Part shown: one piece after another, positions 1 through 52,191 of the stretch
Numbering within the stretch: position 1 is the stretch's first letter
Layout: every line of letters begins with the position of its first letter
Source of the DNA: Parcubacteria group bacterium Greene0714_7
GTDB taxonomy: Bacteria; Patescibacteriota; Minisyncoccia; Phycocordibacterales; Phycocordibacteraceae
Length of the DNA: 64,000 nucleotides
Direction of reading: 5' to 3'
NCBI GenBank assembly: GCA_007378985.1
Contig: VMHB01000001.1
Coordinates: 128,252-192,251 of the forward strand
Made by a program: the position numbers and the translations under genes
Notes under the pieces: model-generated
Databases searched by the model: none
Seen by the model: only the letters and a program-made list of their open reading frames with translations
What the model was told of the DNA's origin: nothing

Positions 1-1155
1 AGAAAAGCAGCGGGTGAGGCAGCTCTCAAACTTGGCTATCCTGTGCTTGTACGCCCCTCGTATGTGCTCTCAGGCTCCGCCATGGCAATTGCGTCTGACG
101 AAGCATCGCTCATGCGATTTTTGGAGCGTGCAGTCGATGTGTCTTCTGAACACCCGATTGTTATTTCAAAATTTATTGAGAATGCACGAGAAATTGAAAT
201 AGACGGGGTCGCTTCAAAAGGAAAGCTGGAAATCTACGCCATAACTGAGCATGTTGAGAACGCAGGCACTCACTCGGGAGATGCAACCGTGGTTTTGCCT
301 CCGCAACGTACTTACCTTGAAACGATTCGTCGAGCGAAGCGCATTGCAAAAAAAGTAGTTAAAGAGTTAAAAATTACGGGCCCATTCAATATTCAGTTTT
401 TGGCGAAAGAAAATAAACTACAGGTTATTGAAACAAATGTGCGTGCATCGCGTAGTTTCCCATTCGTCTCAAAAGTCACTGGTTACAACTTCATTGAACT
501 CGCCACAAAGGCAATGCTAGGCAAAGACATTAGTGGACACTACCAAACACTTGAGCTTGATTATGTTGCAGTAAAATCACCGCAGTTTTCATATAGTCGC
601 ATTAAGGGTGCTGACCCGCTTGGGTATGTCGAGATGGCATCAACAGGTGAAGTGGCTGCGTTTGGTGATTCATATCCTGAGGCTCTCTTGAAGTCCATGA
701 TGGCCGCAGGTTTTCGAATTCCTACAAAAAATATTCTCCTTTCTTTAGGTGGCGAAGAGAACAAAGTAAAACTTCTTCCCGCGATAGAAAAACTTAAAGT
801 GTTAGGGTTTAACTTTTTTGCCACTGAACACACCGCAGAATTTTTGAAAACTCATGGCATCCCGGCACAGCTTGTGCATAAAATAAAAACTGGAAAGAAA
901 GAAAATGTCGGAACGCTCCTTGATTCAGGGAAGCTTGAGCTGATCATCAACCTCGCAAATCGAGGGCTCGTGAGAGAGGGTAATGGTAACGGCGGTCCAT
1001 CAGATGGTTTTATTATTCGTCGCAAGGCAGTTGATCTCAATATTCCTCTCATCACTAACCGTCAGCTTGCAGAGGCGTTCGCCATGGCTCTCTCAGAGGT
1101 AGGAAAGAAAGGCTTAGAGTCAAAATCATGGGATGCATATAAGAAAGATGCTTAA
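1..1155 (+). CDS. carB: carbamoyl-phosphate synthase large subunit, C-terminal part (5' truncated by window edge)
   Basis: Frame 1 is open from nt 1. The ATP-grasp motif LGYPVLVRPSYVLSGSAM is followed by an MGS-like C-terminal domain. The pyr genes lie downstream. Confidence 0.8.
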   Translation, partial: RKAAGEAALKLGYPVLVRPSYVLSGSAMAIASDEASLMRFLERAVDVSSEHPIVISKFIENAREIEIDGVASKGKLEIYAITEHVENAGTHSGDATVVLPPQRTYLETIRRAKRIAKKVVKELKITGPFNIQFLAKENKLQVIETNVRASRSFPFVSKVTGYNFIELATKAMLGKDISGHYQTLELDYVAVKSPQFSYSRIKGADPLGYVEMASTGEVAAFGDSYPEALLKSMMAAGFRIPTKNILLSLGGEENKVKLLPAIEKLKVLGFNFFATEHTAEFLKTHGIPAQLVHKIKTGKKENVGTLLDSGKLELIINLANRGLVREGNGNGGPSDGFIIRRKAVDLNIPLITNRQLAEAFAMALSEVGKKGLESKSWDAYKKDA

Positions 1156-1166
1156 ATGATAGGGAT

Positions 1167-1793
1167 ATGGATGACATCACTCACATACTAAAAGAAGCTG
1201 GAGCTATAACCGAAGGCCATTTTATTGGTACATCAGGAAAACATTTGTCGGTGTATATAAATAAAAATAAAATTCTCATACACGTTGCTCTGACTTCACG
1301 ACTTTGTGAGGTGCTTGCAAAAAAGGTTGTTGGTTGGAATCCGGATGTCATCGTCGCTCCTGCAACTGGTGGCATAGCGCTCTCGCAGTGGATGGCATTT
1401 CATATGAGTGCACTGTTAGGAAGAGAGGTGCTCAGTGCCTACACAGAATCAATTGACGGAGTCCAATCCATTACAAAGCGCGGATATGATGCGGTGGTTA
1501 AAGGTAAGAGGGTTGTGGTAATTGAGGATGTTGTTAACACTGGCAAATCAATTAACGAGGTTGTTCAGGCAGTACAGATGGTTGGGGGTGAAGTTGTGGG
1601 AGCCGTTGCTCTTATAAATAGAAATTCAACCGACACACTAATTCAAGAATTGCTTGGTGTTCCATTCCACTCGCTGTCACTTATGCCACTTGATGCTTAT
1701 GCGGAAAACGAGGTTCCTGAATCGTTGAAAAAAATCCCCATTAACATTGAGCTTGGTCACGGTGCAAAATATCTTAAAGAACACTCGGAGTAA
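1167..1793 (+). CDS. pyrE: orotate phosphoribosyltransferase
   Basis: PRTase fold motif VVVIEDVVNTGKS, about 208 aa, pyr operon context. Confidence 0.75.
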   Translation: MDDITHILKEAGAITEGHFIGTSGKHLSVYINKNKILIHVALTSRLCEVLAKKVVGWNPDVIVAPATGGIALSQWMAFHMSALLGREVLSAYTESIDGVQSITKRGYDAVVKGKRVVVIEDVVNTGKSINEVVQAVQMVGGEVVGAVALINRNSTDTLIQELLGVPFHSLSLMPLDAYAENEVPESLKKIPINIELGHGAKYLKEHSE

Positions 1794-1794
1794 T

Positions 1795-2877
1795 ATGACC
1801 ACTACGCCCTTTTATGATCCTACGAAGTCATACGATGAAAACTATACGGATGGTCCGTTTGGTGGATTTAAAAATGCGCCAGTCTATGAAGAAAAGGGCG
1901 AGCCGATGCATGATGTTTTTGGGCATAAGGTGTACACGCCCTTTGGTATTCCTGCGGGCCCACTTTTAAATAGTGCTTTCATGAAGGGTGCGTTTGATAC
2001 TGGTTTTGATATTGCGGTCTACAAAACAATACGAAGCGGTGCCTATCCCTGCCACCCATTTCCTAATGTGCTCGCTGTGCATCCAGGGGAGCGCCTCACA
2101 CTAGAGCGTGCCCAAGCAGAAGCCTTGGTGGCGGATGTTAACTACACCGAACCTATTTCTATCACCAACTCATTTGGTGTGCCGTCGAAAGAAACACAAG
2201 TTTGGCAGGATGATTTTAAGACAGCTATTGTCTACGAGAAAAAAGGCCAGCTCGCGGTGTTGAGCTTCATGGGTACCGTGAAAGCAGAGCAGACTCAGAA
2301 TGAGTTTATCGATGATTACATTCTTGCAGGATCTCTTGCAGCAAAAACAGGCGCAAAGGTTTTAGAGGTAAATTTGTCGTGCCCTAACATCGGCAATGAG
2401 GGTCTGGTTTGCTACAACTTGGATGTTACGGAAAAAGTATGTGAAGGACTTCGTGCAGTTATTGGCTCAACTCCTTTGATGCTCAAGGTTGGGTATTACA
2501 AAAACAATGAGGATGTTGTGCGCTTAGCTCAAATTGCTGAAAAATATGCAAACGGTGTTTCCGCTATCAACACAGTGCAGGCAACTATTGTGGATGAGAA
2601 AGGAGAGCAAGCGCTCCCAGGGCCAAATCGTTCACGCTCAGGTGTGTGTGGTGCATCCATAAAGTGGGCAGGGCTCGAAATGGTACAGCGTCTGAAAAGT
2701 GCGCGTGATGCTGGTGGACTCACATTTAAAATTTGTGGTGTTGGTGGCGTGATTACTCCCGCTGACTATGCTGAGTATCTCCGCGCTGGTGCTGACATTG
2801 TTATGAGTGCAACAGGCGCTATGTGGAATACAAATTTAGCAAAAGAAATTAAGGAGATCGAAGGGCTTTCTCAGTAA
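1795..2877 (+). CDS. pyrD: dihydroorotate dehydrogenase family protein (class 1-like)
   Basis: NLSCPN active-site Cys motif and a TIM-barrel glycine-rich C-terminus (ICGVGGV). The ATG at 1795 directly follows the pyrE stop. The ORF-track start at 1747 overlaps pyrE and is less likely. Confidence 0.65.
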   Translation: MTTTPFYDPTKSYDENYTDGPFGGFKNAPVYEEKGEPMHDVFGHKVYTPFGIPAGPLLNSAFMKGAFDTGFDIAVYKTIRSGAYPCHPFPNVLAVHPGERLTLERAQAEALVADVNYTEPISITNSFGVPSKETQVWQDDFKTAIVYEKKGQLAVLSFMGTVKAEQTQNEFIDDYILAGSLAAKTGAKVLEVNLSCPNIGNEGLVCYNLDVTEKVCEGLRAVIGSTPLMLKVGYYKNNEDVVRLAQIAEKYANGVSAINTVQATIVDEKGEQALPGPNRSRSGVCGASIKWAGLEMVQRLKSARDAGGLTFKICGVGGVITPADYAEYLRAGADIVMSATGAMWNTNLAKEIKEIEGLSQ

Positions 2878-2968
2878 GAGTAATGATGCATCCCAGCAAT
2901 ACATTCCACTCTTTAATGTCCGTACCATAGGCTTATTCGCACGAATAAGGGATATACTGGTATGTAGG

Positions 2969-3238
2969 ATGACTGATGGAAAGAAACTAGAGAAAATATT
3001 GAAAGCGCTAGCGAACCATCGTCGATTAGCGATACTGAAGTATCTTTTAGTTAAGAAATCAGGGACAGTGGGAGATGTTGCGGGAATAATTAAGCTTTCT
3101 TTCAAGTCTACTTCACGGCATTTGGCAATCTTGAGAGGAGGAGAAATTGTGGAGCGAGAGCAGGTTGGCGTTCTTGCTAATTACTCGCTCGCACAACCAG
3201 TAGATCCTATTGTCCGAACAGTTATTTCTCGGCTCTAG
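2969..3238 (+). CDS. ArsR-family winged-HTH transcriptional regulator (small, 89 aa)
   Basis: ArsR/SmtB-like HTH (HRRLAILKYL ... GTVGDVAGIIKLSFKSTSRHLAILRGGEIVE). It is flanked on both sides by the palindromic repeat family. Confidence 0.6.
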   Translation: MTDGKKLEKILKALANHRRLAILKYLLVKKSGTVGDVAGIIKLSFKSTSRHLAILRGGEIVEREQVGVLANYSLAQPVDPIVRTVISRL

Positions 3239-3274
3239 TTTTTTCTAAATCTTTATTCCTCCTGTAATTATTTC

Positions 3275-3310
3275 ATATATACCCCTTATTCGCACGAATA
3301 AGGGGTATAT
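3275..3310. repeat. perfect palindrome ATATATACCCCTTATTCG-CA-CGAATAAGGGGTATATAT (family 1, copy 2)
   Basis: Seen directly. Other copies are at 2931-2959 (right arm complete, left arm partial), 5427-5464 and 5876-5909. Confidence 0.85.
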
Positions 3311-3392
3311 ATACATATAGAAAATTTGAATGGTTAGGTGCGTATGGCTGGTAGTGTGCTGAATTGAAAATATGGAGGTATAATCTCTTCTA

Positions 3393-4292
3393 ATGCAACA
3401 CATACTCGAGACTCAGCAGTTTGACCGCGAAGCCTTGAATAGTCTTTTTCAGGTTGCGACTTCTCTTGAAGGGAAGCGCACAAAGGATCTTGATGGAAAG
3501 ATTATGGCGTCGTTGTTTTTTGCACCATCCACGCGCACCCGCTTGAGTTTTGAGTCAGCCATGTACAGGCTCGGGGGGCATGTCATCTCAATGGAGAATG
3601 CGAGTGAGTCATCCTCCTCAACGAAAGGAGAGACCATAGAAGACACTATCCGCATCGTAGACAATTACGCGGATGTCATTGTTCTTCGTCACCCAGAAGT
3701 AGGGATGCTCGCGAGGGCTGCTGCTGTTTCGGAAGTCTCTGTCATTAATGGTGGAGACGGCATTGGTCAGCATCCAACGCAGGCGTTTCTTGATTTGTAT
3801 ACTATTTTTCGTGAGATAGGTCGCACTGATGATTTTCACATTGCATTCGTTGGAAACCTTGCGTACTATCGTGCCGCTCGTTCTCTCGCGTATCTTCTTG
3901 GTAAATACAACAATGTAAAAATGACATTCGTGTCTGGCCCGGAGCTTGCTATGAAAGACGATGTGAAAGAGTATTTGAAAGAGAGAGGAGTTCAGTTTAC
4001 CGAAACAGATGATTTAGTAGGAGCAATGCGCGAAGCCGATGTGGTGTATCAAACGCGTATTGCGGAAGAATGGATTCCTGATCACGATCAGTATGAAAAG
4101 CTTCGTGGCAAGTATGTCATTGACCGCGCATTGGTTGACCAGATGAAAGAAGGCTCTATACTCATTCATCCACTTCCACGAGCGGGCGAAATTACTCCTG
4201 AAGTTGATGATTCACCGCACGCAGTCTACTTCAAGCAAGCAGAATATGGCGTTCTTGTGCGCATGGCACTTTTGAAACTGTTACTTGGCTAA
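3393..4292 (+). CDS. pyrB: aspartate carbamoyltransferase catalytic subunit
   Basis: STRTR, HPTQ and HPLP motifs, about 299 aa. Confidence 0.85.
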   Translation: MQHILETQQFDREALNSLFQVATSLEGKRTKDLDGKIMASLFFAPSTRTRLSFESAMYRLGGHVISMENASESSSSTKGETIEDTIRIVDNYADVIVLRHPEVGMLARAAAVSEVSVINGGDGIGQHPTQAFLDLYTIFREIGRTDDFHIAFVGNLAYYRAARSLAYLLGKYNNVKMTFVSGPELAMKDDVKEYLKERGVQFTETDDLVGAMREADVVYQTRIAEEWIPDHDQYEKLRGKYVIDRALVDQMKEGSILIHPLPRAGEITPEVDDSPHAVYFKQAEYGVLVRMALLKLLLG

Positions 4293-4294
4293 AC

Positions 4295-5365
4295 TCAGGA
4301 AATCTTCCACTGAATTTGGAGGCGTTTAGCAGGATCTTCGTTATAGCCAAATGGACGAATGGTTTCGCCATTTGAAATTTGAACCAATGAGTCAATAGTC
4401 CAAGGGTTTTTGGTAAGAGTGGTTGTTTCTTCGTTTGGTGGAAGGCCATAAAACTTGGCTCCGTTTAAAGACGTAAATGTTTCTAGGTTTTCAAGTTTTC
4501 CCATATCTTCAAACACTTGTGTGTAGAGTTCAATTGCTGAAGGAACGGTAAAGATACCTGCTGCGGGTGGAGTTTTTTCTTTGGCGGACACTAGATGTGG
4601 CGCTGAGTCGGTACCAAGGAAAAAATGCGAGTCACCCGATGTTACTGCTTCGCGGAGGGCTTTTTGGTTTTCTTCATTTTTTATGACTGGCATACAGTGA
4701 AGGTACGCAGGTTCCTCGCTATGCTCTACATCCTCTCGATTTTCCATGAGGTGATGGAGAGTCACTGTTGAGCCAAGGCGATTGCTATTTTCGTTTCGTA
4801 CAAAGTCCACGGCGTCTTTCGTTGTTGCGTGCTCTAAGACTATTTTTAACTCAGGGAAATTTTTGAGGAGTGCGGGGAGGGTGGTATCAAGAAATACTTT
4901 TTCACGATCAAATGGGTCAATGGTATTTCCACTCTCATCTTTCAGTGCTTCTCCGTGCATAAGTATAGGCATGCCAACTTTTTGCATTGCCTCAAGAACT
5001 TCATATACCTTTCTAATATCAGTAACGCCTTGTGCTGAATTTGTAGTTGCACCAGCGGGATAGGCTTTTACTGCGGAAGCGATGCCATTTGTGAAGCCGT
5101 CCGCAATTTCTTTAGCCGAAGAGTTATCAGTGAGGTAGTAGGTCATCAAGGGCGTGAATGTTGGATACGCTTTGAGTGCTTCAGTTATTCGTTCTCTGTA
5201 CGCTTGTAGTTCGAGAGTGGTGGTGACGGGGTTTGGTGAGAGGTTGGGCATCACAATCGCTCGTCCAAAAGCCCGTGCAGTGAATGGCAAAACTGCTTCA
5301 AGCATTGCACCGTCTCTAAGATGCACATGCCAATCGTCAGGTTTGCGGATGGTTATTGAGTCCAT
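4295..5365 (-). CDS. pyrC: dihydroorotase, class II (E. coli PyrC-like)
   Basis: N-terminal IRKPDDWHVHLRDG and AIVMPNL closely match class II PyrC. It is convergent with pyrB. Confidence 0.8.
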   Translation of the reverse strand: MDSITIRKPDDWHVHLRDGAMLEAVLPFTARAFGRAIVMPNLSPNPVTTTLELQAYRERITEALKAYPTFTPLMTYYLTDNSSAKEIADGFTNGIASAVKAYPAGATTNSAQGVTDIRKVYEVLEAMQKVGMPILMHGEALKDESGNTIDPFDREKVFLDTTLPALLKNFPELKIVLEHATTKDAVDFVRNENSNRLGSTVTLHHLMENREDVEHSEEPAYLHCMPVIKNEENQKALREAVTSGDSHFFLGTDSAPHLVSAKEKTPPAAGIFTVPSAIELYTQVFEDMGKLENLETFTSLNGAKFYGLPPNEETTTLTKNPWTIDSLVQISNGETIRPFGYNEDPAKRLQIQWKIS

Positions 5366-5426
5366 AGTCTTTGAGCATATTCTACCACCACGCTTACAAT
5401 GTTTATCGCCACCTTGTTTGTTTTTT

Positions 5427-5464
5427 CCTTATATCCCTTATTCGCACGAATAAGGGATATAAGG
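5427..5464. repeat. palindrome family 1, copy 3 (CCTTATATCCCTTATTCG-CA-CGAATAAGGGATATAAGG)
   Basis: Seen directly. The arms carry TCCC/GGGA instead of CCCC/GGGG and stay perfectly complementary. Confidence 0.85.
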
Positions 5465-5528
5465 TTATATAAAAACCTAACGAAGGAGTCGGAAGGGTAG
5501 TGTGTGCATGGTATTTTAAGTATAAGTT

Positions 5529-5852
5529 ATGAAACCTAAAAGTGTTAAAAAAGCAGTTGTGTTCAAAAAAGATGCCTTCCTGCGCGCGAGGGGTGGTTAC
5601 TCGCGACTTTTAGAGCTTTCATGTGAGCACTGTAAGGGTGTGTTGTGTTTGTACCAAAAAGACGGGCCGGGAATTTTGAAACGTCTATATACCGATAGGA
5701 TGATTCCAGAACCTACTCGAACCGCGAAGCAGTTAGTTTGTGAACACTGTGAAAGAGTTCTTGGTGCACTCATTACCTACAAGAAAGAAGATCGGCCAGC
5801 GTATCGGCTTTTTGTTGGCGCGGTCGCCAAGAAAATAGTTAAGTCGCAATAA
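5529..5852 (+). CDS. hypothetical protein with two CxxC pairs (zinc-ribbon-like)
   Basis: CEHCKG ... CEHCERV pairs, basic, 107 aa. Palindromic repeats flank it. Confidence 0.4.
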   Translation: MKPKSVKKAVVFKKDAFLRARGGYSRLLELSCEHCKGVLCLYQKDGPGILKRLYTDRMIPEPTRTAKQLVCEHCERVLGALITYKKEDRPAYRLFVGAVAKKIVKSQ

Positions 5853-5952
5853 CTCACGGAAAACCTTTTTTGAATATATACCCCTTATTCGCACGAATAA
5901 GGGGTATATGCGTGGGTTTGACTTTGGGTTAGTGGAGATTTAGACTCAAAAT

Positions 5953-6168
5953 ATGAGAAATGGAATGGAGTCTCGCGTTATCCGTAAAGAAGCAACTCGA
6001 ACAGGTACTGCCTATCAAGTATTGGTAGATGGTATTTGGCACCTATTTACACTTGGAAGCGACGGGGATACAAGACGAGTAACTGTGCTCGGTGGCGGAG
6101 CGAATGTGGCAAATTGGCCTTTGGCGGAGAGATTGGCGAAGGAAGACAAGGAAGCACTCACCCACTAG
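5953..6168 (+). CDS. hypothetical small protein
   Basis: ORF only. It lies between palindrome copy 4 and dnaX. Confidence 0.25.
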   Translation: MRNGMESRVIRKEATRTGTAYQVLVDGIWHLFTLGSDGDTRRVTVLGGGANVANWPLAERLAKEDKEALTH

Positions 6169-6223
6169 ATTGTTGTTTTTTATACAGGCCGTATCGTAAG
6201 GTTTTTTGTTATACTAGAAAGTA

Positions 6224-7261
6224 ATGTCCACTTCAGATCTTTCTTTGTACAGAAAATACCGTCCCCAGGTCTTTAAGGATGTGTTGGGGCAAGATCATGT
6301 GGTTAAAGTGCTTGAGGGAGCACTCAAAGAAAAGCATCCAGCCCATGCGTATCTGTTTATAGGCTCTCGAGGAACAGGTAAAACGTCTGTTGCCCGCATC
6401 CTTGCACGTGAGCTTGGCGCAAACGAGCGGGACATTTATGAAATGGATGCAGCGTCGAACACTGGCGTTGATAACATTCGCCAACTTCGTGAAGAGGCGT
6501 TTGTAATGCCGTTTGAGTCTCCTCGGAAGGTGTACATCATCGATGAAGTGCACATGCTTTCAAAAGGTGCTTTCAATGCGTTTTTGAAAATTCTTGAAGA
6601 GCCTCCTTCACATGTGGTGTTTATTCTTGCGACAACGGAATTAGAAAAAGTTCCTGAAACTATTCAGTCCCGTTGCCAAGTATTTACATTCAAAAAACCC
6701 AGCCAGAAAGTATTGGTGGAAATGGTAACGAGAGTAGCTAAAGCAGAAGGCTTCACGCTCGAGCCCGCAGCGGCAGAATTAATTTCACTTCTTGCAGACG
6801 GATCATTCCGTGATGCGCACGGCACCTTGCAGAAAATCATCGCATCTTCATCTGACAAAAAAGTAAGTGTCGAAGAAGCAGTGCTCGTTACGGGGGCGCC
6901 TCGCCTTGAGCTCGTGGAAAAAGTCATTACGGATTTAAGTGAAGGGAAGGCCGATGGAGCACTTCAGGCAGTAGGGGAGGCAACGAAGGCGAATGCTGAC
7001 ATGAATGTATTTGCCATGCTCCTTCTTCAACGTTTGCGCATTCTTCTTATGCTTCGCTACTCACCTGAATTTGGGAAAGAGCTTGCGGCCGATTTGGCCG
7101 ACACTGACCGTGCATTTCTTGAGGCACTTGCTAAAGACGCAAAATCAAAAATAAATTCAGAAACCCTCCGAAAATTCATCCTCGCCTCAATAGAAATCCC
7201 TCGCTCTCCCGTTCCGCAGTTGCCGTTAGAGCTTGCAATAATGGAATTGGCTCAAAGCTAG
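6224..7261 (+). CDS. dnaX: DNA polymerase III subunit gamma/tau, short form (345 aa)
   Basis: YRPQVFKDVLGQDHV, Walker A GSRGTGKTS, the SRC motif (TIQSRCQVF) and DEVHML. It lacks the tau C-terminal domains. Confidence 0.85.
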   Translation: MSTSDLSLYRKYRPQVFKDVLGQDHVVKVLEGALKEKHPAHAYLFIGSRGTGKTSVARILARELGANERDIYEMDAASNTGVDNIRQLREEAFVMPFESPRKVYIIDEVHMLSKGAFNAFLKILEEPPSHVVFILATTELEKVPETIQSRCQVFTFKKPSQKVLVEMVTRVAKAEGFTLEPAAAELISLLADGSFRDAHGTLQKIIASSSDKKVSVEEAVLVTGAPRLELVEKVITDLSEGKADGALQAVGEATKANADMNVFAMLLLQRLRILLMLRYSPEFGKELAADLADTDRAFLEALAKDAKSKINSETLRKFILASIEIPRSPVPQLPLELAIMELAQS

Positions 7262-7467
7262 GTGTCAGGTTCCAGGTTCCAGGTTTCAGGAAAACAAAAT
7301 TAAAACTGGGAATTTCATCCGGGAGTCACTGTAAGTGTTCATTACTATAGCCGTCTTATTGTGAAGTGCTCTATTATATATGGGGCATTTAGAAAGTCTT
7401 TTAAGTAACTAATGCGGAGAGGGTCGCATTTCAATCGACGACATGCGACACGATTTCGCTAAATCGT

Positions 7468-8058: not shown

Positions 8059-8070
8059 TCTTTCTTTTAA

Positions 8071-8103
8071 AAAACACCCCGCTTCCCGCAGGGTGTTTTT
8101 TGT
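8071..8103 (+). terminator. rho-independent terminator
   Basis: The AAAACACCC ... GGGTGTTTTTTGTT hairpin is followed by a T-run. Confidence 0.6.
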
Positions 8104-8167: not shown

Positions 8168-8238
8168 TGGGGAATCGTCTAATGGTAGGACAGAGGCCTT
8201 TGAAGCCTTTAATTGGGGTTCGAATCCCTGTTCCCCAG
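8168..8238 (+). tRNA. tRNA-Gln (anticodon UUG)
   Basis: Manual fold. Acceptor TGGGGAA/TTCCCCA starts with U1-A72 like bacterial tRNA-Gln. The D-arm is GTCT/GGAC. The anticodon stem GAGGC/GCCTT carries loop CUUUGAA. The T-arm is TGGGG-TTCGAAT-CCCTG. The discriminator is G and no CCA is encoded. A hairpin plus T-run follows at 8253-8282. Confidence 0.7.
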
Positions 8239-8408
8239 CTAGAGAAAGTTGAATCCCGATGTGAAAACATCGGGATTTTTATTTTCTCTCTGTGGACAGG
8301 GATTCGAAAGACGGAGGCGCGAAGCCACATGTTTCATGTGTTGCCGAGTCGGGGTCGAGCGCACTTAGTATTTTACGAATTTGAGGAGTAAAATACTTAG
8401 TGACGGGT

Positions 8409-8430
8409 GACCGAATCCCTGTTCCCCAGC
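8409..8430 (+). repeat. direct copy of the tRNA-Gln 3' end (T-arm plus acceptor), copy 2
   Basis: GACCGAATCCCTGTTCCCCAGC matches 8217-8238. Further copies are at 8684-8705 and, truncated, at 12611-12623. A tRNA 5'-half-like fragment sits at 8477-8501 and an inverted T-arm fragment at 8294-8308. Confidence 0.7.
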
Positions 8431-8683
8431 AGTGCACACGAATGAACACTTTTTCATTCCCCTCGCTCGCTAGACAGTAGGACAGAGGCCTTTGAAGCCT
8501 TGAATTAGAGTTTTTTGCGAGCGAAGCGATCCATTACAAAAAAGCTCGAATTCACTTCGCGGATGTTGCGTATAGCAACACAAGAAGCTAATTGGGGTAA
8601 AAATTAGAGTTGGGCGATTAGAAAATCGTGCCGAGAGGCTTCGCAAGAAATTTCAGTCAAGAAATTTACTTGTGACCGAATCC

Positions 8684-8721
8684 CTGTTCCCCAGCCAGCT
8701 TGAGATAGGTTCAATGTCCAG
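8684..8721 (+). repeat. left direct repeat (tRNA-Gln 3' end plus CAGCTTGAGATAGGTT) bounding a 3.9-kb element
   Basis: Its partner at 12611-12638 (TTTCCCCAGC CAGCTTGAGCTAGGTT) has the same junction sequence after the tRNA-derived part. Confidence 0.6.
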
Positions 8722-8825
8722 AGAGCCTATCCAAGCACTATTCTGAAAAGGCATACCTGCTGAGAGCAGTATTCAAACAAAAAGCCACCCAATGGGTGGC
8801 TTTTTGTTTGCACTTTAATCTCGAG

Positions 8826-16001: not shown

Positions 16002-16387
16002 AAATAATACAAGACGACGTATTAAGTTATAGAGAAATGTGTAATTCTGAAAACCAGGAAGTTATGCAACGTGGTATGAATTTTCGTATGAACCCTTCGT
16101 ACTCAGTTATTTTGATGTCACAGAGAGCAAATGCACCATATTCAGACAAGGTTCATGGTGATGGGGTTACAATCGAGTACGAAGGACATGATATTTCAAA
16201 AGCTTATAGTAAAAATCCAAAAGTAGAAGATCAGCCAGAAAAACTTTCAAGCGGTAAGCTAACACAGAATGGTTTCTTTATTAAGGCTGTGAATGATTTC
16301 AAAATGAAAGGGGGAATACCAGAACTAGTAAAAGTATATGAAAAGTGTTTCCTGGAGTCTGGTCTTTTAAAGGGTACTTTGATTTAG
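15998..16387 (+). CDS. hypothetical protein, possibly the N-terminal part of the downstream HNH nuclease (frameshift)
   Basis: 129-aa ORF ending 43 nt inside the next ORF, which is in the -1 frame. The start overlaps the upstream stop (ATGA). Confidence 0.35.
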   Translation: MKIIQDDVLSYREMCNSENQEVMQRGMNFRMNPSYSVILMSQRANAPYSDKVHGDGVTIEYEGHDISKAYSKNPKVEDQPEKLSSGKLTQNGFFIKAVNDFKMKGGIPELVKVYEKCFLESGLLKGTLI

Positions 16388-16692
16388 TTGATTATAAAGT
16401 TGTTCACGATCAATATCGAAATGTATTTCGATACATTCTACAACTATCTGATCGCTCAGAAAGTTCGAATGTAGAAAAAAAGAAGTTGGAGCATAGCAGG
16501 TTGATTCCTTCAGAGGTTAAAAGAGAGGTTTGGAAAAGAGATGGGGGGGAATGTGTTATTTGTGGCGATAATAAAAATCTTCACTTTGATCATGATTTAC
16601 CATTTTCTAGAGGTGGAACTAGTTTATCGACAAAGAATGTTCGCCTGCTTTGTATGAAACACAATCTTCAGAAATCAGATAAAATTGAGTAG
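16345..16692 (+). CDS. HNH endonuclease domain protein
   Basis: CVICGDNKNLHFDHDLPFSRGG ... NVRLLCMKHN is an HNH motif with Zn-binding Cys/His. The true start is uncertain and a frameshift from 15998-16387 is possible. Confidence 0.55.
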   Translation: MFPGVWSFKGYFDLVDYKVVHDQYRNVFRYILQLSDRSESSNVEKKKLEHSRLIPSEVKREVWKRDGGECVICGDNKNLHFDHDLPFSRGGTSLSTKNVRLLCMKHNLQKSDKIE

Positions 16693-16848: not shown

Positions 16849-16884
16849 CCACACCAAGGCGAACGAACGTTCGCCTTGGTGTGG
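16849..16884. repeat. 36-bp perfect palindrome CCACACCAAGGCGAACG|AACGTTCGCCTTGGTGTGG followed by TATAATTTTTT
   Basis: Seen directly. It lies between the DUF2779 gene fragment and the RhuM/Fic start, and could be a terminator, an operator or an insertion boundary. Confidence 0.6.
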
Positions 16885-16900
16885 TATAATTTTTTAAAGT

Positions 16901-17881
16901 ATGAAAAAGAAACCAGTAAAAAATAACGTAGTTATCTATCAAGCAAAAAACGGCGCTATTGAGCTTCGTGGGGATTTTGAGCATGAGAGTATTTGGGCAA
17001 CACAGGCTGAAATAGCTCGACTATTTGATGTGACTCCTCAAAATATTACTTTACACCTTGGAGGTATTTTTAAGGAAAAAGAGCTTGATCAAAAGGCAAC
17101 TTGTAAGGATTTCTTACAAGTTCAAACAGAGGGAGATAGGCAGGTAAAGAGAAACGTTAAGCTCTATAATCTTGATGTCATTATTGCTGTTGGTTACCGA
17201 ATTAATTCGGTAATAGGTACGAATTTTCGCATATGGGCAACCAAGACGCTCCGTGAGCACATAACCAAAGGCTACACAATAAACCGTAAGCAAATCGGCA
17301 AGAATTACGATTCTTTTATGAAAACGGTTTCGGACATTCAGGCACTGTTGCCCGAACACGTAACGCTCGACCCTAAAGCGATACTCGAACTTGTAAAAGA
17401 GTTCTCAAGTACGTGGGTGTCACTTGATGCCTATGACAAAGGAACGCTCAAGGCTGTTGGATCAACTAAAAAATCAATTACACTCACCGGTATTGAATTG
17501 ACTGAAGCGATTTTGAGTTTCCGTTCCGAGTTGTTGAACAAAGGTGAGGCAACAGAGATATTTGCACAAGAAAGATCTGAGGGAAGTGTTGAAGGAATAG
17601 TAGGGAACGTCATGCAATCATTCGGTGGCAAACCCCTCTATGTGTCTCTCGAAGAGAAAGCGGCACACCTCTTGTACTTTATGGTGAAGAATCATCCGTT
17701 TGTTGATGGCAACAAACGCTCAGGTGCATTTGCGTTCATTTGGTTTTTACGTAAAGCAAAAGTTAAAACAATGCGGAATATAAACCAGGGAGCGTTGACT
17801 GCGCTTACTCTTTTGATTGCAGAAAGCGATCCCGATAAGAAAGACCACATGGTTGCGTTGGTTACAGAGATTCTGAAGTAG
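16901..17881 (+). CDS. RhuM-family N-terminal domain fused to Fic/Doc (death-on-curing-type) domain protein
   Basis: The RhuM-like N-terminus is VVIYQ ... IELRGDFEHESIWATQAEIARLF ... NLDVIIAVGYRINS ... FRIWATKTL. The C-terminal Fic motif is HPFVDGNKRSGA. Confidence 0.65.
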   Translation: MKKKPVKNNVVIYQAKNGAIELRGDFEHESIWATQAEIARLFDVTPQNITLHLGGIFKEKELDQKATCKDFLQVQTEGDRQVKRNVKLYNLDVIIAVGYRINSVIGTNFRIWATKTLREHITKGYTINRKQIGKNYDSFMKTVSDIQALLPEHVTLDPKAILELVKEFSSTWVSLDAYDKGTLKAVGSTKKSITLTGIELTEAILSFRSELLNKGEATEIFAQERSEGSVEGIVGNVMQSFGGKPLYVSLEEKAAHLLYFMVKNHPFVDGNKRSGAFAFIWFLRKAKVKTMRNINQGALTALTLLIAESDPDKKDHMVALVTEILK

Positions 17882-20453: not shown

Positions 20454-23400
20454 TTGTCGGTGCAGATGTTTCGGCAGACATTTGGTTTTTTACTTATTGT
20501 GCTCATTTTTTTAAGCGCACCTTTTTCAGCGTTTGCAGCAACTATCTACGCTAATAGTTCTACTGGGAATGATTCAACTGGTGACGGAACCTCAGGGTTA
20601 CCGTATGCAACTTTTCATAAAGCCTACACATCAGCGAGTGCAAATGACACAATCGATCTTACGGGCACCTTTACGTGGACAGATGCAGCAGAAACCGGAG
20701 ACAGCGCAACGACGGGCTACACCATCGGAAAGAATCTCACTATCCAAGGTCAGGGAAGTAGTGCGACATACATCCAAGCAGCGAGTGCTTCAACGACTGC
20801 CGACCGGCGTGTGTTCACTATCTCTTCTGGAGTCGTTGTAACGATGGCCGAAGTGAACATTCGACATGGACGTATTACCTCGACAAGTTACTATGGTGGC
20901 GGCATCGCCAACAGCGGTACACTCTCCATCACCGACAGCGAAATAAACAACAATACCGCAGGTGGCGGAGGTGGCGGTATAGATAACGTAGGTACGACGA
21001 CTGCACAACGCATTTCCGTGTACAACAACACGACTACCTACATGGGTGGCGGTCTTCTCAACGACTACTACATCGGCACGGGTGGCTACTTTGTCGTTGA
21101 GAACTCGACTATCTATGGCAACCGACAGACTTCGACCAGCGGATACCTCAATGGCGGTGGCGTGCATGTGCGTGGCGGTAGTATGTCGCTTACCAACAAC
21201 ACCATCACAGGCAACATCGCCAAAGGTGGAGGTGGTCTCGGAATGGAAACAACTGGCTCGGTGTATTTGATGAACAACATCATTGCGGGCAACACATCTC
21301 AGACATACGGCTCAACATATAATGACCTAAAGAAAGACTCAGGCACTATCGTTGATAATGGGTACAACATTATTGGTCAGCCAGGTGGCTACTCGCTCGC
21401 TGCAACTGGCGATTGGAGCGATACGAATGTTGATGGTACCTACAGTCTCTATACTGTCGGCACGACAGGCTCGCTCAATCTCGACACTGGAGCGAGCATC
21501 AATGACAATGCAACTTCAACGCCTACTTGGGCGGTTCTTGCAAGCTCAATTGCTATCAACAACGGCTCGACCGGAAGCAATGGGGCGACATCGACGGTGC
21601 CAACTCTGGACCAGCGTGGCGCTAGCCGTAGCGGTACGACCGATATCGGTTCGTTCGAATATAACGGTTCCGGGCTCACTATTTCTGCTCCCTCGACGCA
21701 AGCGAGCGCAGTGTCGTTCAGTGCAGTCGAATACTACAAGATGACGATCTCGTGGACCAACGGCAGTGGTTCGCGTCGCACTGTTTTCATGAAAGCCGCT
21801 TCGAGTGGCACGGCCTCTCCGGTCGACGGCACAAGCTATACTGCCTCGTCGGTTTTCGGCTCCGGTACGCAGATAGGTTCTTCCGGATGGTATGCAGTTT
21901 ATGAGGGACTCAACTCAAGTGTTACTGTGACCGGATTGTCGGAAGGCGTCACCTACAGCGTGCAGGTGTTTGAGTACAATGGGATTACATCGGGGGCGGC
22001 AACATATCAGACGGCGAGCGCATCGAATAATCCAAATACGCAGGCGTCGCATACGAAGACCACGCTCTACATCAATGCCTCCACGGGAAATGATTCGACG
22101 GGCGATGGCTCGTCCGGTTCGCCGTACGCTACCTTTCATAAAGGATATACGACGGCATCCGAAGGCGATACGCTGAATTTGACCGGCACGTTCACCTGGA
22201 CAGATGCAGCAGAAACCGGAGACAGCGCAACGACGGGTTATTCGATCGCAAAAGAACTCATTATTCAAGGGCAAAGCGCTACCTCTACTATTTTCCAGTC
22301 CGCAACCGCTTCGACGACTGCCGACCGGCGTGTGTTTACGACCAGTTCCGGAAAGACCATTGCGTTCAACGACGTAACTATTCGGCACGGCCGTATCACG
22401 AGTTCGTCCTCGAAAGGTGGAGGTATCTACAGCCAGGGAACGACGACGGTGACCCGTGCGACTATTACGGACAACTACGTGAACGGTTATGGGGGCGGTA
22501 TCGCTCAGGAAGATACGACGAATGGCGGTTCACTCACACTTACCTCGAGCACGGTGGCAAACAACACGGGAGTTTCGCAAGGTGGCGGCGTCTGGAACGG
22601 AACGAGCTCGACAGGCACCGTGGACATCGTGAACTCAACCATTGCATTCAATGTTCAGCAGGCTTCGATTGCGACCGTGGGTGGTGGTGGCGTCGCATAC
22701 CGAAGTGGCAGTGGCACCATTACGAACAGCACCATTGTCTACAACAACATTCAAAACGGTGGAACCGCAAACGGTGCGGGGGTTTGGTTTAGCCCCGACA
22801 CATCCCATACGATAGAGCTCAAAAACAATATCATTGCAAATAACTACAAATCCGGTGCAGCACTTTCGGGTTCATATTACGATATCTATAAAGGAAGTAG
22901 TGGCACCTATACAGACAACGGTGCGAACATCATTGGTAAGTATACGAGCTCGAACCTGACCGTCGCATCGAGCACGTTGATAGATTTGCAGGGGACGACC
23001 GGTACGGGTGATGGCACTTTCACACGTTCAAGCGATGGTGGAAGCGGTTCTTTGTATCTCGACACCGCACTTGCCGATAACGGTGTCCTAAAGACACAGA
23101 CGATTGCTCTCACAAACGCATCAAGTATCGCAATCGGCAACGGTTATAGCGGGACGAATGGTTCCATCTCCGTCCCTTCGGTTGATCAGCGTGGCGGTGC
23201 TCGTGTTGGGACACTCGACATTGGTGCATATGAATACGGCGCGACGGTTGATACGACCGCACCGACCGTTTCGCTTACCGCTCCCTCGGCGAGTGCGACC
23301 GTCTCTGGTGAATCCGTTTCTCTTACGGCGACCGCTTCCGATGGCATAGGTGTCGCAGGTGTTTCGTTCTACGTGGACGGCGTACTTCAGGGAGCGGAAG

Positions 23401-26723: not shown

Positions 26724-26839
26724 ATACTTTCTCTAAGTAAACAGACGTTTCCATCAAAACAGCCCATTAAGGGCTGTTTTGATTTGAAATAATGCTGACT
26801 CGGCTAGTGTAGTAGTAAGAATAGTTATAGATTGAATAC

Positions 26840-33022: not shown

Positions 33023-33135
33023 AAGAGACATCCTTACGTTTTCCCCAAAAACAGATGTAAAGTCAGCTTTACATCTGTTTTTCTTTTATTTATAGTAGTA
33101 GGTGCAGGGTTAATTAATAAATATCACTATTTTTT

Positions 33136-39564: not shown

Positions 39565-40308
39565 TTAGAGACTGAGGGCGGTAAGAAGTTCTTTTAATTC
39601 AGCACCAGCAATGGGTCGGTGAGCCCCTGGCTTTAATTCACCGAGCTTTATATTCATCATGCGCACTCGCTCCAAGGTTTCAATGTTCACCCCGCACGCA
39701 ACGCACATTCTGCGGATTTGGTGTTTCTTTCCTTCAGTTAAGGTAATAGTAAATCCAAAATCATCTTCGATTTCAATAGTGCAGGGCTTTGTTACATAGC
39801 CTTCAATATCGACACCTGCCTCCATTCGTTTTTTAAAATTCTTCGGTATTTCATCGGTTGTGGTGACTCTGTATTCTTTTTCGTGCTCGTATTCGGGATT
39901 GAGAAGTTTGTCGGTAACACGCCTGTCGTCGGTAAGAATAATGAGCCCTGTTGATTTTTTATCGAGCCTGCCCACAGGGAACACTCCTTTGAGTGAGACG
40001 GCCATTAAAATATCTTTCTCGCCCTCCTGCGGGGAATGAGTAACAACGCCTTCGGGCTTATTGTATGCATAGTAGCGATACTCTTTTCGCGCGCCTTTTA
40101 CTTCTACAATATCTTTTTCTTCAACCTTATCTCCAAGAACTGCCTGCCTACCATTAATGAACACCAATCCTTGTGTTATGAGAACATCGGCATCTTTGCG
40201 TGTTGCATAGCCCTTATGGGCAAGGTATTTATTAATCCGAAGCGGCGATTTAGCGAAATCGTGTCGCGTACCGTCCATTAAAACGCGACGCTGTGGTATT
40301 TTACCCAT
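39565..40308 (-). CDS. pseudouridine synthase, RsuA/RluB family
   Basis: S4 domain (RINKYLAHKGYATRKDADVLI) and catalytic GRLDKKSTGLIILTDD. Confidence 0.75.
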   Translation of the reverse strand: MGKIPQRRVLMDGTRHDFAKSPLRINKYLAHKGYATRKDADVLITQGLVFINGRQAVLGDKVEEKDIVEVKGARKEYRYYAYNKPEGVVTHSPQEGEKDILMAVSLKGVFPVGRLDKKSTGLIILTDDRRVTDKLLNPEYEHEKEYRVTTTDEIPKNFKKRMEAGVDIEGYVTKPCTIEIEDDFGFTITLTEGKKHQIRRMCVACGVNIETLERVRMMNIKLGELKPGAHRPIAGAELKELLTALSL

Positions 40309-48495: not shown

Positions 48496-48514
48496 TCCAC
48501 TCACTAGAGAAAAG

Positions 48515-48548
48515 AAAATACCGCCTTCAGGGCGGTATTTTCTTTTAC
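48515..48548 (+). terminator. rho-independent terminator
   Basis: The AATACCGCC-TTCAG-GGCGGTATT hairpin is followed by TTTCTTTT. Confidence 0.65.
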
Positions 48549-52031: not shown

Positions 52032-52132
52032 GTATTAAGTTCGGTATACCCCGTGAGATACGTCATTTAAAAATGATGTAGGTATTCGACAGAAAGGCAC
52101 GGTCGACCAGCATAGGTGAGTGGAACAATTAC

Positions 52133-52160
52133 TATCTCATGGGGTATACCCCATGAGATA
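52133..52160. repeat. 28-bp perfect palindrome TATCTCATGGGGTA|TACCCCATGAGATA (family 2), with half-site copies at 52043-52060 (inverted) and 52198-52214
   Basis: Seen directly. A T-run follows the central palindrome. Confidence 0.8.
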
Positions 52161-52191
52161 GGAGTTATTTTTACTACGCGCTTTTTTCTAG

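Follow-up and report, generated by a model that had tools for sequence, protein, structure and literature searches.

Autorepressors of the ArsR/SmtB family, represented by SmtB, CzrA, and CadC and also by NolR, HlyU, and PagR, act at 12-2-12 operators, inverted repeats with a 2-bp center and TATTC/GAATA-like half-sites located at the promoter of the regulator's own gene, and SmtB-type operators can bind two dimers. Near-invariant inverted repeats that persist together with their regulator over large distances, with few copies per genome, are also known from HrcA-CIRCE, NrdR boxes, and LexA boxes, and CIRCE acts also as an RNA hairpin when transcribed. Two further systems are built on palindromes: REPtrons, in which short extragenic palindromes show arm covariation and a 3′/convergent bias and the cognate gene is flanked by the repeats, and bidirectional intrinsic terminators, which are long GC-containing hairpins in short gaps, often just past stop codons. 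The locus described here, in a 64-kb stretch of Parcubacteria DNA (the window), encodes a small protein of the same family and fold as SmtB, CzrA, and CadC, surrounded by palindromes with the center and half-sites of 12-2-12 operators, one of them at the putative promoter of the protein's own gene. It departs from the ArsR/SmtB autorepressors in several ways: the protein is minimal (86-89 aa) and lacks residues for sensing metals or thiols; each palindrome arm reaches 15-18 bp, often with perfect symmetry; the gene has a second site at its 3′ end; further sites are scattered without a resistance gene or any other coherent regulon; and the core is kept across several Patescibacteria classes. 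HrcA-CIRCE differs in its unrelated protein family, 9-nt spacer, and heat-shock regulon, whereas the spacer here is 2 bp and no regulon is visible.

The window contains exactly four occurrences of the core CTTATTCGCACGAATAAG, against a shuffle expectation of 0.08, and none of 100 shuffles reached eight strand-matches. All four copies are clustered inside 3 kb around the gene for the 89-aa ArsR/SmtB-type protein: between pyrD and that gene, between that gene and pyrB, between pyrC and a 107-aa open reading frame (ORF), and 3′ of the ORF (Table 1). These are the places near pyrBC where the original prediction, made from the letters of the window, had put them. No further core match was found in the window even when three mismatches were allowed, and a search for additional ATTCGNNCGAAT sites at one mismatch gave nothing beyond one chance-level match. 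The claim that every intergenic gap holds a copy stands for gaps of useful size, but the 2-nt pyrB/pyrC gap has none. Likewise, the perfect twofold symmetry attributed to every copy is found in copies 2, 3, and 4, which are palindromes of 34-38 bp whose outer arms vary as described (CCCC/GGGG versus TCCC/GGGA), but not in copy 1, where the left flank, 'catagg', is not complementary and the left arm is absent. The same armless form of copy 1 is found in the orthologous loci of two relatives, L115 and L116. The center of all four window copies is an asymmetric CA on the + strand.

Table 1. Genes, palindromes, and putative promoter elements around the ArsR-like gene, in window coordinates
Feature	Positions	Strand	Description
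pyrD (dihydroorotate dehydrogenase)	1747..2877	+	Upstream neighbor of the module; start codon uncertain
Copy 1 (core 2932-2949)	2932..2956	.	CTTATTCG-CA-CGAATAAG (8-2-8) plus right arm GGATATA only
Putative −10 of ArsR-like gene	2953..2958	+	TATACT, by consensus only; ends 10 nt before ATG
ArsR/SmtB-family winged-helix regulator	2969..3238	+	89 aa; recognition helix LSFKSTSRHL
Copy 2 (core 3285-3302)	3275..3312	.	Perfect 18-2-18, ATATATACCCCTTATTCG CA CGAATAAGGGGTATATAT
Putative pyrB −10	3379..3384	+	TATAAT; ends 8 nt before ATG at 3393
pyrB (aspartate carbamoyltransferase)	3393..4292	+	Downstream neighbor of copy 2
pyrC (dihydroorotase)	4295..5365	-	Divergent from 107-aa ORF across copy 3
Putative pyrC extended −10	5379..5384	-	TGGTAGAAT; ends 13 nt before ATG at 5365
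Copy 3 (core 5437-5454)	5427..5464	.	Perfect 18-2-18, CCTTATATCCCTTATTCG CA CGAATAAGGGATATAAGG; divergent pyrC/107-aa ORF region
Putative extended −10 of 107-aa ORF	5509..5517	+	TGGTATTTT; ends 11 nt before ATG at 5529
107-aa ORF	5529..5852	+	CxxC...CxxC zinc-ribbon-like; between copies 3 and 4; no family match above threshold; called as gene in source contig too
Copy 4 (core 5884-5901)	5876..5909	.	Perfect 16-2-16, ATATACCCCTTATTCG CA CGAATAAGGGGTATAT
Promoter-like element	5918..5946	+	TTGACT-17-TAGACT; ends 6 nt before ATG at 5953 (71-aa ORF, then dnaX)

Copy 1 lies 54 nt past the pyrD stop codon, with its center ~28 nt ahead of the start codon of the ArsR-like gene, and its right arm is overlapped by the putative −10 of that gene, the position of which would make the ArsR-like mRNA near-leaderless. 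In L115, GGGATATACTGGTATGTAG is found at an equal distance from the ATG, though the core there is 20 nt further from the −10, so operator-promoter geometry is not strictly kept. Copy 2 is 36 nt past the stop codon of the ArsR-like gene and is centered ~85 nt upstream of the putative pyrB −10, which is kept in L115 without the adjacent GGAGG; the putative pyrC extended −10 is kept there as well. Copy 3 is upstream of both putative −10 elements that flank it and is thus probably untranscribed. Copy 4 follows the stop codon of the 107-aa ORF by 23 nt, and the −10 at 5941-5946 lies ~50 nt downstream of its center. Only one of the four window sites overlaps a putative promoter, an observation that does not favor operators.

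The protein was recognized by Pfam HTH_5 (PF01022; 27.9 bits, cut-off 22) and by the metalloregulator ArsR-SmtB profile NF033788 of NCBIfam (55.7 bits, cut-off 55), confirming it as a small ArsR-like regulator. Its AlphaFold2 model (pLDDT 94.1) has the winged-helix order α1-α2-α3-αR-β1-β2-α5, with helices at residues 3-14, 17-29, 34-41, 45-57, and 80-88 and strands at 61-66 and 69-74, and Foldseek aligned it to CadC, HlyU, CzrA, and NolR with TM scores of 0.81-0.85. These four and PagR, the closest solved relatives, are all double-stranded DNA (dsDNA)-binding dimers. We detected 583 homologs of ~86 aa, and all of those with a named source are from Patescibacteria; LSFKSTS(R/K)HL, the recognition helix, hardly varies among 120 homologs. 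The window protein contains no Cys, no α3 or α5 metal ligands, and no His/Asp/Glu cluster in α5, and no conserved Cys was seen in 28 aligned homologs. An inducer site of the α3 CxC, α5 D/H/H/E, or BigR/SqrR/HlyU-type Cys pair kind, which marks the metal- and thiol-sensing subgroups and not the whole ArsR/SmtB family, is not present in the regulator. The lack of a recognizable ligand or metal site weighs against operators.

To place the window in context, sites and proteins were searched separately. In a DNA-first search of 185,579 species genomes, the exact 18-mer was detected in 114 stretches; complementary arms accompanied 102 of 126 exact sites, nearly all of them in Patescibacteria metagenome-assembled genomes (MAGs), and the 24 armless sites were mostly from other phyla, with ~17 expected by chance. 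Some 58 Patescibacteria assemblies, drawn from several classes, contain the 18-mer, with 1-9 copies per assembly, not hundreds; near-complete genomes and contigs of 0.33-0.95 Mb carry 1-4 exact cores. A homolog of the regulator is encoded in 24 of the 114 8-kb loci, usually less than 120 nt from the site, where ~1 was expected. In the protein-first sample of 102 distinct homologous ArsR-like genes, an ATTYR-NN-YRAAT palindrome was found within 160 nt upstream of 86 of 99 homologs, downstream of 86 of 98, and on both sides of 77 of 95, whereas chance would give ~0.015 such flanking cores per set. The upstream palindromes abut or overlap TATAAT-like −10 boxes near the start codon, which, as far as sequence can indicate, is the classic autorepressor layout. 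The 3′ palindrome often overlaps the stop codon of the regulator gene, and the next gene is convergent in 27 of 95 cases; a 3′ palindrome as frequent as the upstream one is not needed by a simple promoter-operator model. Flanking genes are heterogeneous across Patescibacteria, the only enriched family is ArsR itself, and the genes around the sites do not form a coherent set of targets. Candidate regulator-operator pairs span Saccharibacteria, Doudnabacteria, and many Paceibacteria/Parcubacteria lineages, and neither Rfam nor the literature open to search yielded a description of the element. The predicted module of gene plus flanking palindromes is therefore widespread in Patescibacteria and not pyrimidine-specific.

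Core geometry is strongly constrained. Over 269 sites ATTCG-NN-CGAAT is invariant with constant spacing, and the center is a YR step in 244 (91%; CA/TG 150, CG 54, TA 40); GC or AT centers, which would make equally good palindromes and loops, were never seen among them. The inverted repeat thus has the fixed 2-bp center and conserved half-sites of a 12-2-12-type operator, with the binding motif consensus CTWATTCG-YR-CGAATWAG. Asymmetric combinations of half-sites (CTAATTCG..CGAATAAG) are common, so pairing within the core is not required. In diverged paralogs, where the recognition helix is altered, the bracketing palindromes are altered too but keep their design: SIQSTSRHL with CTTATTTAGCTAAATAAG (L056), NFKTISAHT with three sites of AATGTTCT-TA-AGAACATT (L025), and NFKTISEHT with ACATTCTG-CAGAATGT on either side (L019). 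The invariant spacing and YR center suit recognition by a protein dimer. Among the original proposals, that of operators for the embedded winged-helix protein is the one supported by the gene-palindrome linkage, at ~85% of 102 loci, by the conservation of helix and core together, and by the pairing of altered helices and altered palindromes.

We consider it probable, on comparative and structural-model grounds, that the palindromes are dsDNA operators of the homodimeric ArsR/SmtB-type protein encoded among them, and the best reading of the regulator is a predicted autoregulated ArsR-type dimer without a known sensor site. What is observed is the sites with their statistics, the linkage of gene and palindrome, the conservation of the helix jointly with the core, and the family and fold of the protein; that the protein binds, in which direction it regulates, where the promoters lie, and what the arms do are predictions. 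The recognition helix of each subunit would read one half-site, CTWATTCGY, with the 8-2-8 spacing of the two half-sites fixed and the pyrimidine-purine center between them flexible. Because copy 1 overlaps the putative promoter of the regulator, the protein would be an autorepressor. Copies 2-4 occupy the next three gaps, at 23-36 nt from the stop codon before them and with the next putative −10 ~50-85 nt downstream (two divergent ones for copy 3), where bound protein might block read-through from one unit to the next, loop to copy 1, or modulate neighboring promoters. Since copy 3 is between divergent putative promoters and copy 1 is upstream of a −10, both would act as DNA and not RNA. The basic unit would be palindrome, regulator gene, palindrome, with a few dispersed sites, and in this lineage the unit happens to occupy the pyr cluster. 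The outer arms, which in many lineages form a second, weaker half-site (CTATTCT beside CTTATTCG), probably widen the protein footprint to a dimer of dimers, and two dimers on an SmtB-type operator would fit the four half-site-like repeats. Unusual for such a system are the second, 3′ palindrome even in convergent gaps, the long, perfectly symmetric arms with their compensated variation, and the missing coherent regulon.

The arms bear on a second explanation, that structure comes first. Arm covariation is real: the score of 0.351 exceeds those of shuffles (0.142) and slid controls (0.152 or less), and within genomes 38 arm changes are compensated and ~34 single. Compensated variation is not predicted by a dimer reading two independent half-sites. 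The original prediction took covariation to imply selection for a hairpin, but comparison with orthologs, in which arm variants are swapped between copies 2 and 3 and the center is flipped, points at least as much to recombination or template-switching. We think that perfect arm symmetry is most likely maintained by such exchange within and between palindromes. If structure did come first, the elements would work as hairpins or cruciforms with the ArsR-like protein as the dedicated factor for the conserved apex and autoregulation as a side effect, and they would serve as RNA 3′-end stabilizers or processing sites or as protein-dependent bidirectional insulators or roadblock terminators. We regard this as unlikely. 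Consistent with it, the perfect 16-18-bp arms would fold as single strands with energies between −24 and −27 kcal/mol (z = −5.5 to −7.9; copy 2, −24.2 kcal/mol, z = −6.4), sites 6-100 nt after stop codons outnumber those before start codons (109 versus 76), convergent gaps are enriched ~2-fold, the regulator 3′ end has a site in 88% of loci with convergent gaps included, and some 'ctattct'-class copies are flanked by A-/T-runs like bidirectional terminators. However, no general T-run enrichment follows the element, canonical terminators exist separately in the window, and, of the four copies, the third is probably untranscribed and the first is one arm short. Moreover, perfect arms are found in only 18-28% of protein-selected sites, upstream and downstream alike, and asymmetric cores that leave an A-A mismatch recur. 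The YR-restricted center and a loop size that never varies, a sense-strand bias in G-U versus A-C mismatches (26 versus 15) that is not significant, and a center orientation without strand preference (23 versus 14) also argue against this explanation, as does the duplex DNA binding of all solved relatives of the protein.

Known bidirectional terminators differ from the window copies, which have no A-/T-runs and a sequence-conserved apex, and ordinary terminators are found elsewhere in the genome. A consensus scan for intrinsic terminators gave none at the four sites, as originally predicted from the missing T-run, and TTTT follows the element in 6-19% of cases against a background of 13%. Exact-core sites in convergent and divergent gaps number 22 and 8, and sites away from the regulator 20 and 8, with a null of ~1:1; the dispersed sites are thus, if anything, convergent-enriched and divergent-depleted, the opposite of typical operators. 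A tentative and rather unlikely reading is a Patescibacteria-wide boundary system in which palindromes capable of forming cruciforms or hairpins, bound by their dedicated winged-helix protein without a sensor, mark and insulate transcription units, with a self-bracketed regulator gene and palindrome-mediated recombination that keeps the symmetry and exchanges elements between copies. Its elements would act as roadblock terminators or loop anchors and form a class of extragenic palindromes with a protein partner, distinct from ordinary operators and REPs.

We judge it very unlikely that the unit is a selfish, REPtron-like mobile module that spreads its palindromes and was merely inserted into the pyr cluster. 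In its favor, the gene has its own repeats on both sides in 81% of loci, its neighbors are almost never conserved (the 95 downstream fall into 81 clusters), paralogs have their own palindrome type and dispersed copies and occur in tandem in one locus (L136), in close relatives arm variants and center orientation have switched between copies, and public assemblies break at copies. Against mobility, the protein, at 86-89 aa, consists of a DNA-binding domain with no catalytic one, exact cores are as few as given above, no match was found in 2.9 million viral contigs, no target-site duplications were seen, and all three comparable copies are at unchanged positions in relatives whose regulator is 89-91% identical. 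The core is kept across classes while protein identity falls to 40-60%, indicating long vertical co-inheritance under selection. REPtrons have copy numbers two orders of magnitude higher, an HUH/Y1 transposase instead of a winged-helix binder, a GTAG head that is missing here, and species-specific REPs instead of a class-spanning core. The REP/MITE family that had been among the predicted candidates was not borne out: REP/RAYT was rejected with four copies in 64 kb, at most nine per assembly (exact cores only), and no HUH/Y1 transposase, and MITE with a simple 32-38-bp palindrome, no internal sequence, no duplicated flanks, and identical positions in L115 and L116.

A pyrimidine-specific attenuator, PyrR-type RNA site, or dedicated pyr operator is hardly credible and largely refuted: all four window copies are in the pyr cluster and the arrangement is kept in the two relatives, but this context is peculiar to the lineage, pyr genes adjoin only 3 of ~95 regulator loci, and elsewhere the palindrome is found beside aaRS, glmS, ddl, sodA, rpmB, and tmk, among others, without an excess of pyr neighbors. 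The unusual pyr regulon once suggested for the locus is thus not supported, and the attenuator hairpins fail, also with no T-runs at the window copies and copy 3 between divergent putative promoters. No Rfam family, the PyrR site included, matched at gathering or relaxed thresholds; hits at E ≤ 5 were generic hairpins, almost all miRNA precursors.

For the window, the result corrects the tempting interpretation of pyrimidine-specific control. The absence of a sensor site, the sites at 3′ ends and in convergent gaps, and the perfect, covarying arms point tentatively to the delimitation of transcription units more than to signal-responsive repression. Genomes of Patescibacteria (the candidate phyla radiation) are tiny and encode very few transcription factors, and to our knowledge essentially nothing is known of gene regulation in these bacteria. 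A precisely defined motif in a stereotyped self-bracketing architecture provides a directly testable entry point, and the motif can be used for regulon prediction in thousands of MAGs.

The 18-bp core CTTATTCGCACGAATAAG occurs four times in the window, starting at 2932, 3285, 5437 and 5884, where 0.08 matches are expected by chance on average (dinucleotide-preserving shuffles). No further match was found in the 64 kb even with three mismatches allowed, and a relaxed search of the window for ATTCGNNCGAAT gave no credible extra site. The asymmetric centre reads CA on the plus strand in all four copies. The original prediction described every copy as a perfect palindrome, which holds for copies 2 to 4, whose arms (the complementary flanks outside the 8-2-8 core) are TATACCCC/GGGGTATA or TATATCCC/GGGATATA; copy 1 consists of the core and a right arm, GGATATA, and its left flank, 'catagg', is unpaired. 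The same organism has a public short-read assembly, L197, whose contigs end exactly inside copies 2 and 4; palindromes of this kind therefore fragment assemblies, and their copy numbers in metagenome-assembled genomes (MAGs) are probably underestimates.

Features of the pyr cluster and its palindromes, in window coordinates
Feature	Position	Strand	Description
carB C-terminus	43-1155		
pyrE	1167-1793		
pyrD	1747-2877		followed by copy 1
ArsR/HTH_5 gene	2969-3238		89 aa; between copies 1 and 2
Copy 2	3275-3312		perfect 18-2-18 palindrome
Putative -10-like box	3379-3384		TATAAT; ends 6-13 nt before start codon
pyrB	3393-4292		after copy 2
pyrC	4295-5365	-	copy 3 lies between it and the 107-aa ORF
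Putative -10-like box	5379-5384	-	TGGTAGAAT; ends 6-13 nt before start codon
Copy 3	5427-5464		perfect 18-2-18 palindrome
Putative -10-like box	5509-5517		TGGTATTTT; ends 6-13 nt before start codon
107-aa ORF	5529-5852		CxxC...CxxC; between copies 3 and 4
Copy 4	5876-5909		perfect 16-2-16 palindrome
Putative -10-like box	5918-5946		TTGACT-17-TAGACT, of which the -10-like TAGACT ends 6-13 nt before start codon
71-aa ORF, dnaX, tRNA-Gln			in this order after copy 4

Copy 1 is the sole window copy that overlaps a putative promoter (TATACT, 2953-2958). The centre of copy 2 lies ~85 nt upstream of the putative pyrB -10-like box, that of copy 3 ~60-65 nt from each of two divergent putative boxes, and that of copy 4 ~50 nt upstream of its own. 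All of these putative -10-like boxes are within 13 nt of their start codons, and the mRNAs, here and in many Patescibacteria regulator loci, appear to be largely leaderless or near-leaderless. Matches in a consensus promoter scan were no commoner than in shuffles, and the promoter positions therefore rest on our reading of consensus-like boxes that are kept in L115, a close relative with an orthologous pyr locus. Compared with window 2932-2968, L115 (4594-4650) and, similarly, the second such relative, L116, carry a 20-nt insertion that duplicates the GGGATATA arm; it falls between the copy-1 core and a -10-like TATACT box and places the operator two helical turns upstream. No family was found in PHROGs or NCBIfam for the 107-aa and 71-aa ORFs.

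The 89-aa protein encoded between copies 1 and 2 passes Pfam HTH_5 and an NCBIfam ArsR/SmtB subfamily model. Its predicted fold, a1-a2-a3-aR-b1-b2-a5 (pLDDT 94), superposes on CadC, HlyU, CzrA, NolR and PagR with TM scores of 0.81-0.85. Cysteine is absent from the protein, as are the alpha3 and alpha5 ligand sets; judged from its sequence, it is thus an ArsR-type DNA binder without a recognizable sensor. We detected 583 homologs of ~86 aa, those shown being mostly 50-60% identical, and all source-named homologs are from Patescibacteria. Among the 120 best homologs the recognition helix, LSFKSTS(R/K)HL, hardly varies.

A scan of 185,579 species, each represented by one genome, found the exact 18-mer in 114 stretches from 69 assemblies. 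Of 126 sites, 102 have flanks that are complementary at six or more of the 10 positions beyond the core. These armed sites come almost all from Patescibacteria MAGs (Saccharibacteria, Doudnabacteria, Lipton-, Colwell-, Jorgensen-, Nealson-, Zambryski-, Harrison-, Staskawicz-, Nomura- and Sungii-bacteria), with a small number from MAGs that carry other labels. The 24 armless matches are mostly from other phyla and agree with the ~17 that an 18-mer should have by chance over both strands of 596 Gb. Arm sequences differ by lineage (ctattct|agaatag, tataccc|gggtata, tacaccc|gggtgta, gagtg|cactc, ccattgt|acaatgg and others) and stay complementary in every case.

A homolog of the regulator is encoded in 24 of the 114 8-kb loci selected by DNA, usually within 120 nt of the site; a single-copy gene of a ~1-Mb genome should turn up in about one of the 114. 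A protein-selected set of 80 metagenome loci was pooled with the earlier loci to give 102 distinct homologous genes. The core ATTYR-NN-YRAAT lies within 160 nt upstream of the homolog in 86 of 99 cases, within ~160 nt downstream in 86 of 98 and on both sides in 77 of 95; chance would give ~10^-4 per flank. Cores on both flanks so far above chance define a stereotyped unit, palindrome–regulator gene–palindrome, which copies 1 and 2 of the window display. In the regulator loci, the upstream site touches or overlaps TATAAT-like boxes a few nucleotides before the start codon, and the downstream site often overlaps the regulator stop codon (…ATT CTC TAA TTCG…). In 27 of 95 loci a convergent gene comes next after the 3′ site, so this site is not simply the operator of the neighboring gene. 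When the genes next to the sites were profiled with Pfam, HTH_5 was the sole recurrent family (9 of 54 genes on the 5′ side and 8 of 89 on the 3′), and no pathway theme emerged among these 54 and 89 neighbors, HTH_5 alone being enriched; the others are unrelated housekeeping genes, including aaRS, glmS, ddl, sodA, ppdK, tmk, rpmB and tsaD. One of the few recurrent non-regulator neighbors is rpmB (ribosomal protein L28), with the palindrome just 3′ of it in three genomes (loci L005, L034 and L036).

Some genomes encode several ArsR-like paralogs, with three in one locus (L136), and in locus L019 (4453-4846) a standard regulator gene stands beside a diverged paralog. Diverged paralogs are flanked by palindromes of the same design and other sequence: CTTATTTAGCTAAATAAG on both sides of the L056 paralog (SIQSTSRHL), AATGTTCT-TA-AGAACATT at three places, dispersed copies included, for that of L025 (NFKTISAHT), and ACATTCTG-CAGAATGT on both sides of that of L019 (NFKTISEHT). 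The 5-2-5 heart, ATTCG-NN-CGAAT, is the same in all 269 distinct sites, as is its spacing. In 244 of them the center is a pyrimidine-purine step (CA/TG 150, CG 54, TA 40), and in none is it GC or AT, though either would suit a palindrome or a loop just as well. All four bases occur at core position 3, often symmetrically (T/A, A/T, C/G, G/C), and asymmetric pairs, for example CTAATTCG..CGAATAAG, are frequent. Together with the conserved helix, these properties suit a model in which each of two identical subunits would read CTWATTCGY on the duplex better than they suit a hairpin.

The arms covary. Across 137 sites, 84% of cells are paired under the two-fold structure, as against 71% in shuffles, and double changes number 343, as against 130; the covariation score is 0.351, as against 0.142 in shuffles (0/500) and at most 0.152 in slid controls. 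Deviations from a genome's own arm consensus comprise 38 compensated and ~34 single changes, the latter counted after setting aside three armless sites of the copy-1 type. In the protein-selected sample, arm complementarity did not differ between upstream and downstream sites (p = 0.28), and only 18-28% of sites had perfect arms, so the long perfect form of the window is the extreme of a graded series. The arm in many lineages repeats the half-site with an 8-bp shift (CTATTCT-CTTATTCG; CTTATTCG-CTTATTCG in L096; ACATTCT-C-ACATTCT in the L019 paralog). With two repeats per side, a whole site could hold two dimers, which would account for the arms in part; SmtB-type proteins place two dimers on 12-2-12 sites. 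The paralog sites of L025 combine a different core with the arms that are usual in that genome (CTATTCT), and the arms are thus constrained in sequence within a genome, not just in pairing.

Between the window and L115, whose regulators are 91% identical, the symmetric arm variants of copies 2 and 3 are swapped and both centers flipped, with gene order the same: copy 2 reads ACCCC..CA..GGGGT in the window against ATCCC..TG..GGGAT in L115, and copy 3 reads ATCCC..CA..GGGAT against ACCCC..TG..GGGGT. Eight point changes are an unlikely route to this state; a simpler one, we infer, would be exchange between the two palindromes in inverted register, for example by two successive inversions through the outer and the inner arm pairs, or by gene conversion. 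The original prediction took compensatory covariation of the arms to imply selection. The arms do covary, and the swap means that the covariation in the window may stem from recombination or template-switching among self-complementary copies rather than from selection on pairing alone.

ALTERNATIVES tested were intrinsic terminators, RNA elements, REP/MITE sequences, a pyr-specific device and looping. The reading that we favor, with moderate confidence and from comparative sequence evidence, is that the palindromes would serve as operators for an ArsR-type autoregulator that lacks a sensor, is bracketed by its own sites and is shared across Patescibacteria. Sites follow a stop codon more often than they precede a start (109 vs. 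76), and convergent gaps outnumber divergent ones among exact-core sites (22 vs. 8) and away from the regulator (20 vs. 8), the null being ~1:1 in both cases. The operator model leaves unexplained this post-stop and convergent bias, the arm covariation, the 3′ site and the promoter-distant copies 2 to 4. A primary role that is structural or boundary-forming, with the palindromes acting as protein-bound insulators, roadblocks or 3′-end hairpins, is a less likely reading, to which we still give appreciable weight.

For looping, the spacing of the sites flanking the regulator (286-473 bp) gave no 10-10.5 bp phasing signal, and a weak one at 11.5-11.75 bp has an uncorrected p of ~0.007 and suffers from confounding by relatedness. 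A pyr-specific regulon, as proposed at the outset, was abandoned: there is no pyr enrichment, and the module sits in the pyr cluster only in the window lineage (the window, L115 and L116). The suggestion of a REP/MITE-like family failed on copy number, the measure put forward with it: an assembly carries 1-9 exact cores, and a contig of 0.33-0.95 Mb carries 1-4. A transposase and target duplications are also absent, orthologous positions are stable, and the core has no match in viral contigs. An RNA element was rejected because Rfam is empty at the sites and strand biases are absent. Searches of the whole window at the gathering threshold and of 2800-6300 at E ≤ 5 returned only tRNA-Gln and sub-threshold generic hairpins, almost all miRNA precursors; G-T (G-U) versus A-C arm mismatches on the sense strand number 26 versus 15, which is not significant, and the orientation of asymmetric centers relative to gene direction (23 vs. 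14) shows no bias. Copy 3 is probably not transcribed. Intrinsic terminators were rejected because a consensus scan found neither a terminator nor a T-run at the four window sites and two versions of a test found no general T-run enrichment after the element. An integron attC-like site (conservation here is central rather than terminal, and a non-exhaustive look at the window showed no integrase) and a DNA-uptake sequence (dropped on copy number) were also rejected.

The window holds other repeats. Canonical bidirectional terminators (A-run, G+C stem, T-run) lie at 8069-8101, 8772-8812, 26753-26783, 33047-33082, 48510-48546 and 57165-57199, which shows that ordinary terminators exist in this genome apart from the palindromes around the regulator gene. 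A second palindrome cluster (52043-52214), possibly the site array of another regulator, has a full palindrome, TATCTCATGGGGTATACCCCATGAGATA, at 52130-52163, flanked by half copies at 52043-52060 and 52197-52214; TATCTCATGGGGTATACCCCATGAGATA contains the GGGGTATA motif in opposite order. A perfect 17-2-17 palindrome, CCACACCAAGGCGAACG-AA-CGTTCGCCTTGGTGTGG (16849-16884), separates an HNH-like ORF (16345-16692) from a 326-aa ORF (16901-17881), within which lies a 10-0-10 palindrome, TTACCGAATTAATTCGGTAA (17194-17213). After the tRNA-Gln gene (8168-8239) come partial copies of its 3′ part (8407-8430, 8477-8512 and 8672-8695; whole region 8168-8695) that look like scars of integrative elements. 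A 208-nt direct repeat of 72% identity (20545-20752 and 22066-22273, 1521 nt apart) probably marks tandem paralogous genes, and a 47-nt inverted repeat of 85% identity joins 7420-7466 and 40246-40292, 32.8 kb apart.

No description of the motif or the module was found in Rfam or the searchable literature (also ATTCGCACGAAT), which is not proof of novelty. The analysis yields a defined motif and a protein to test, of moderate general interest and of higher interest for candidate-phyla-radiation biology.
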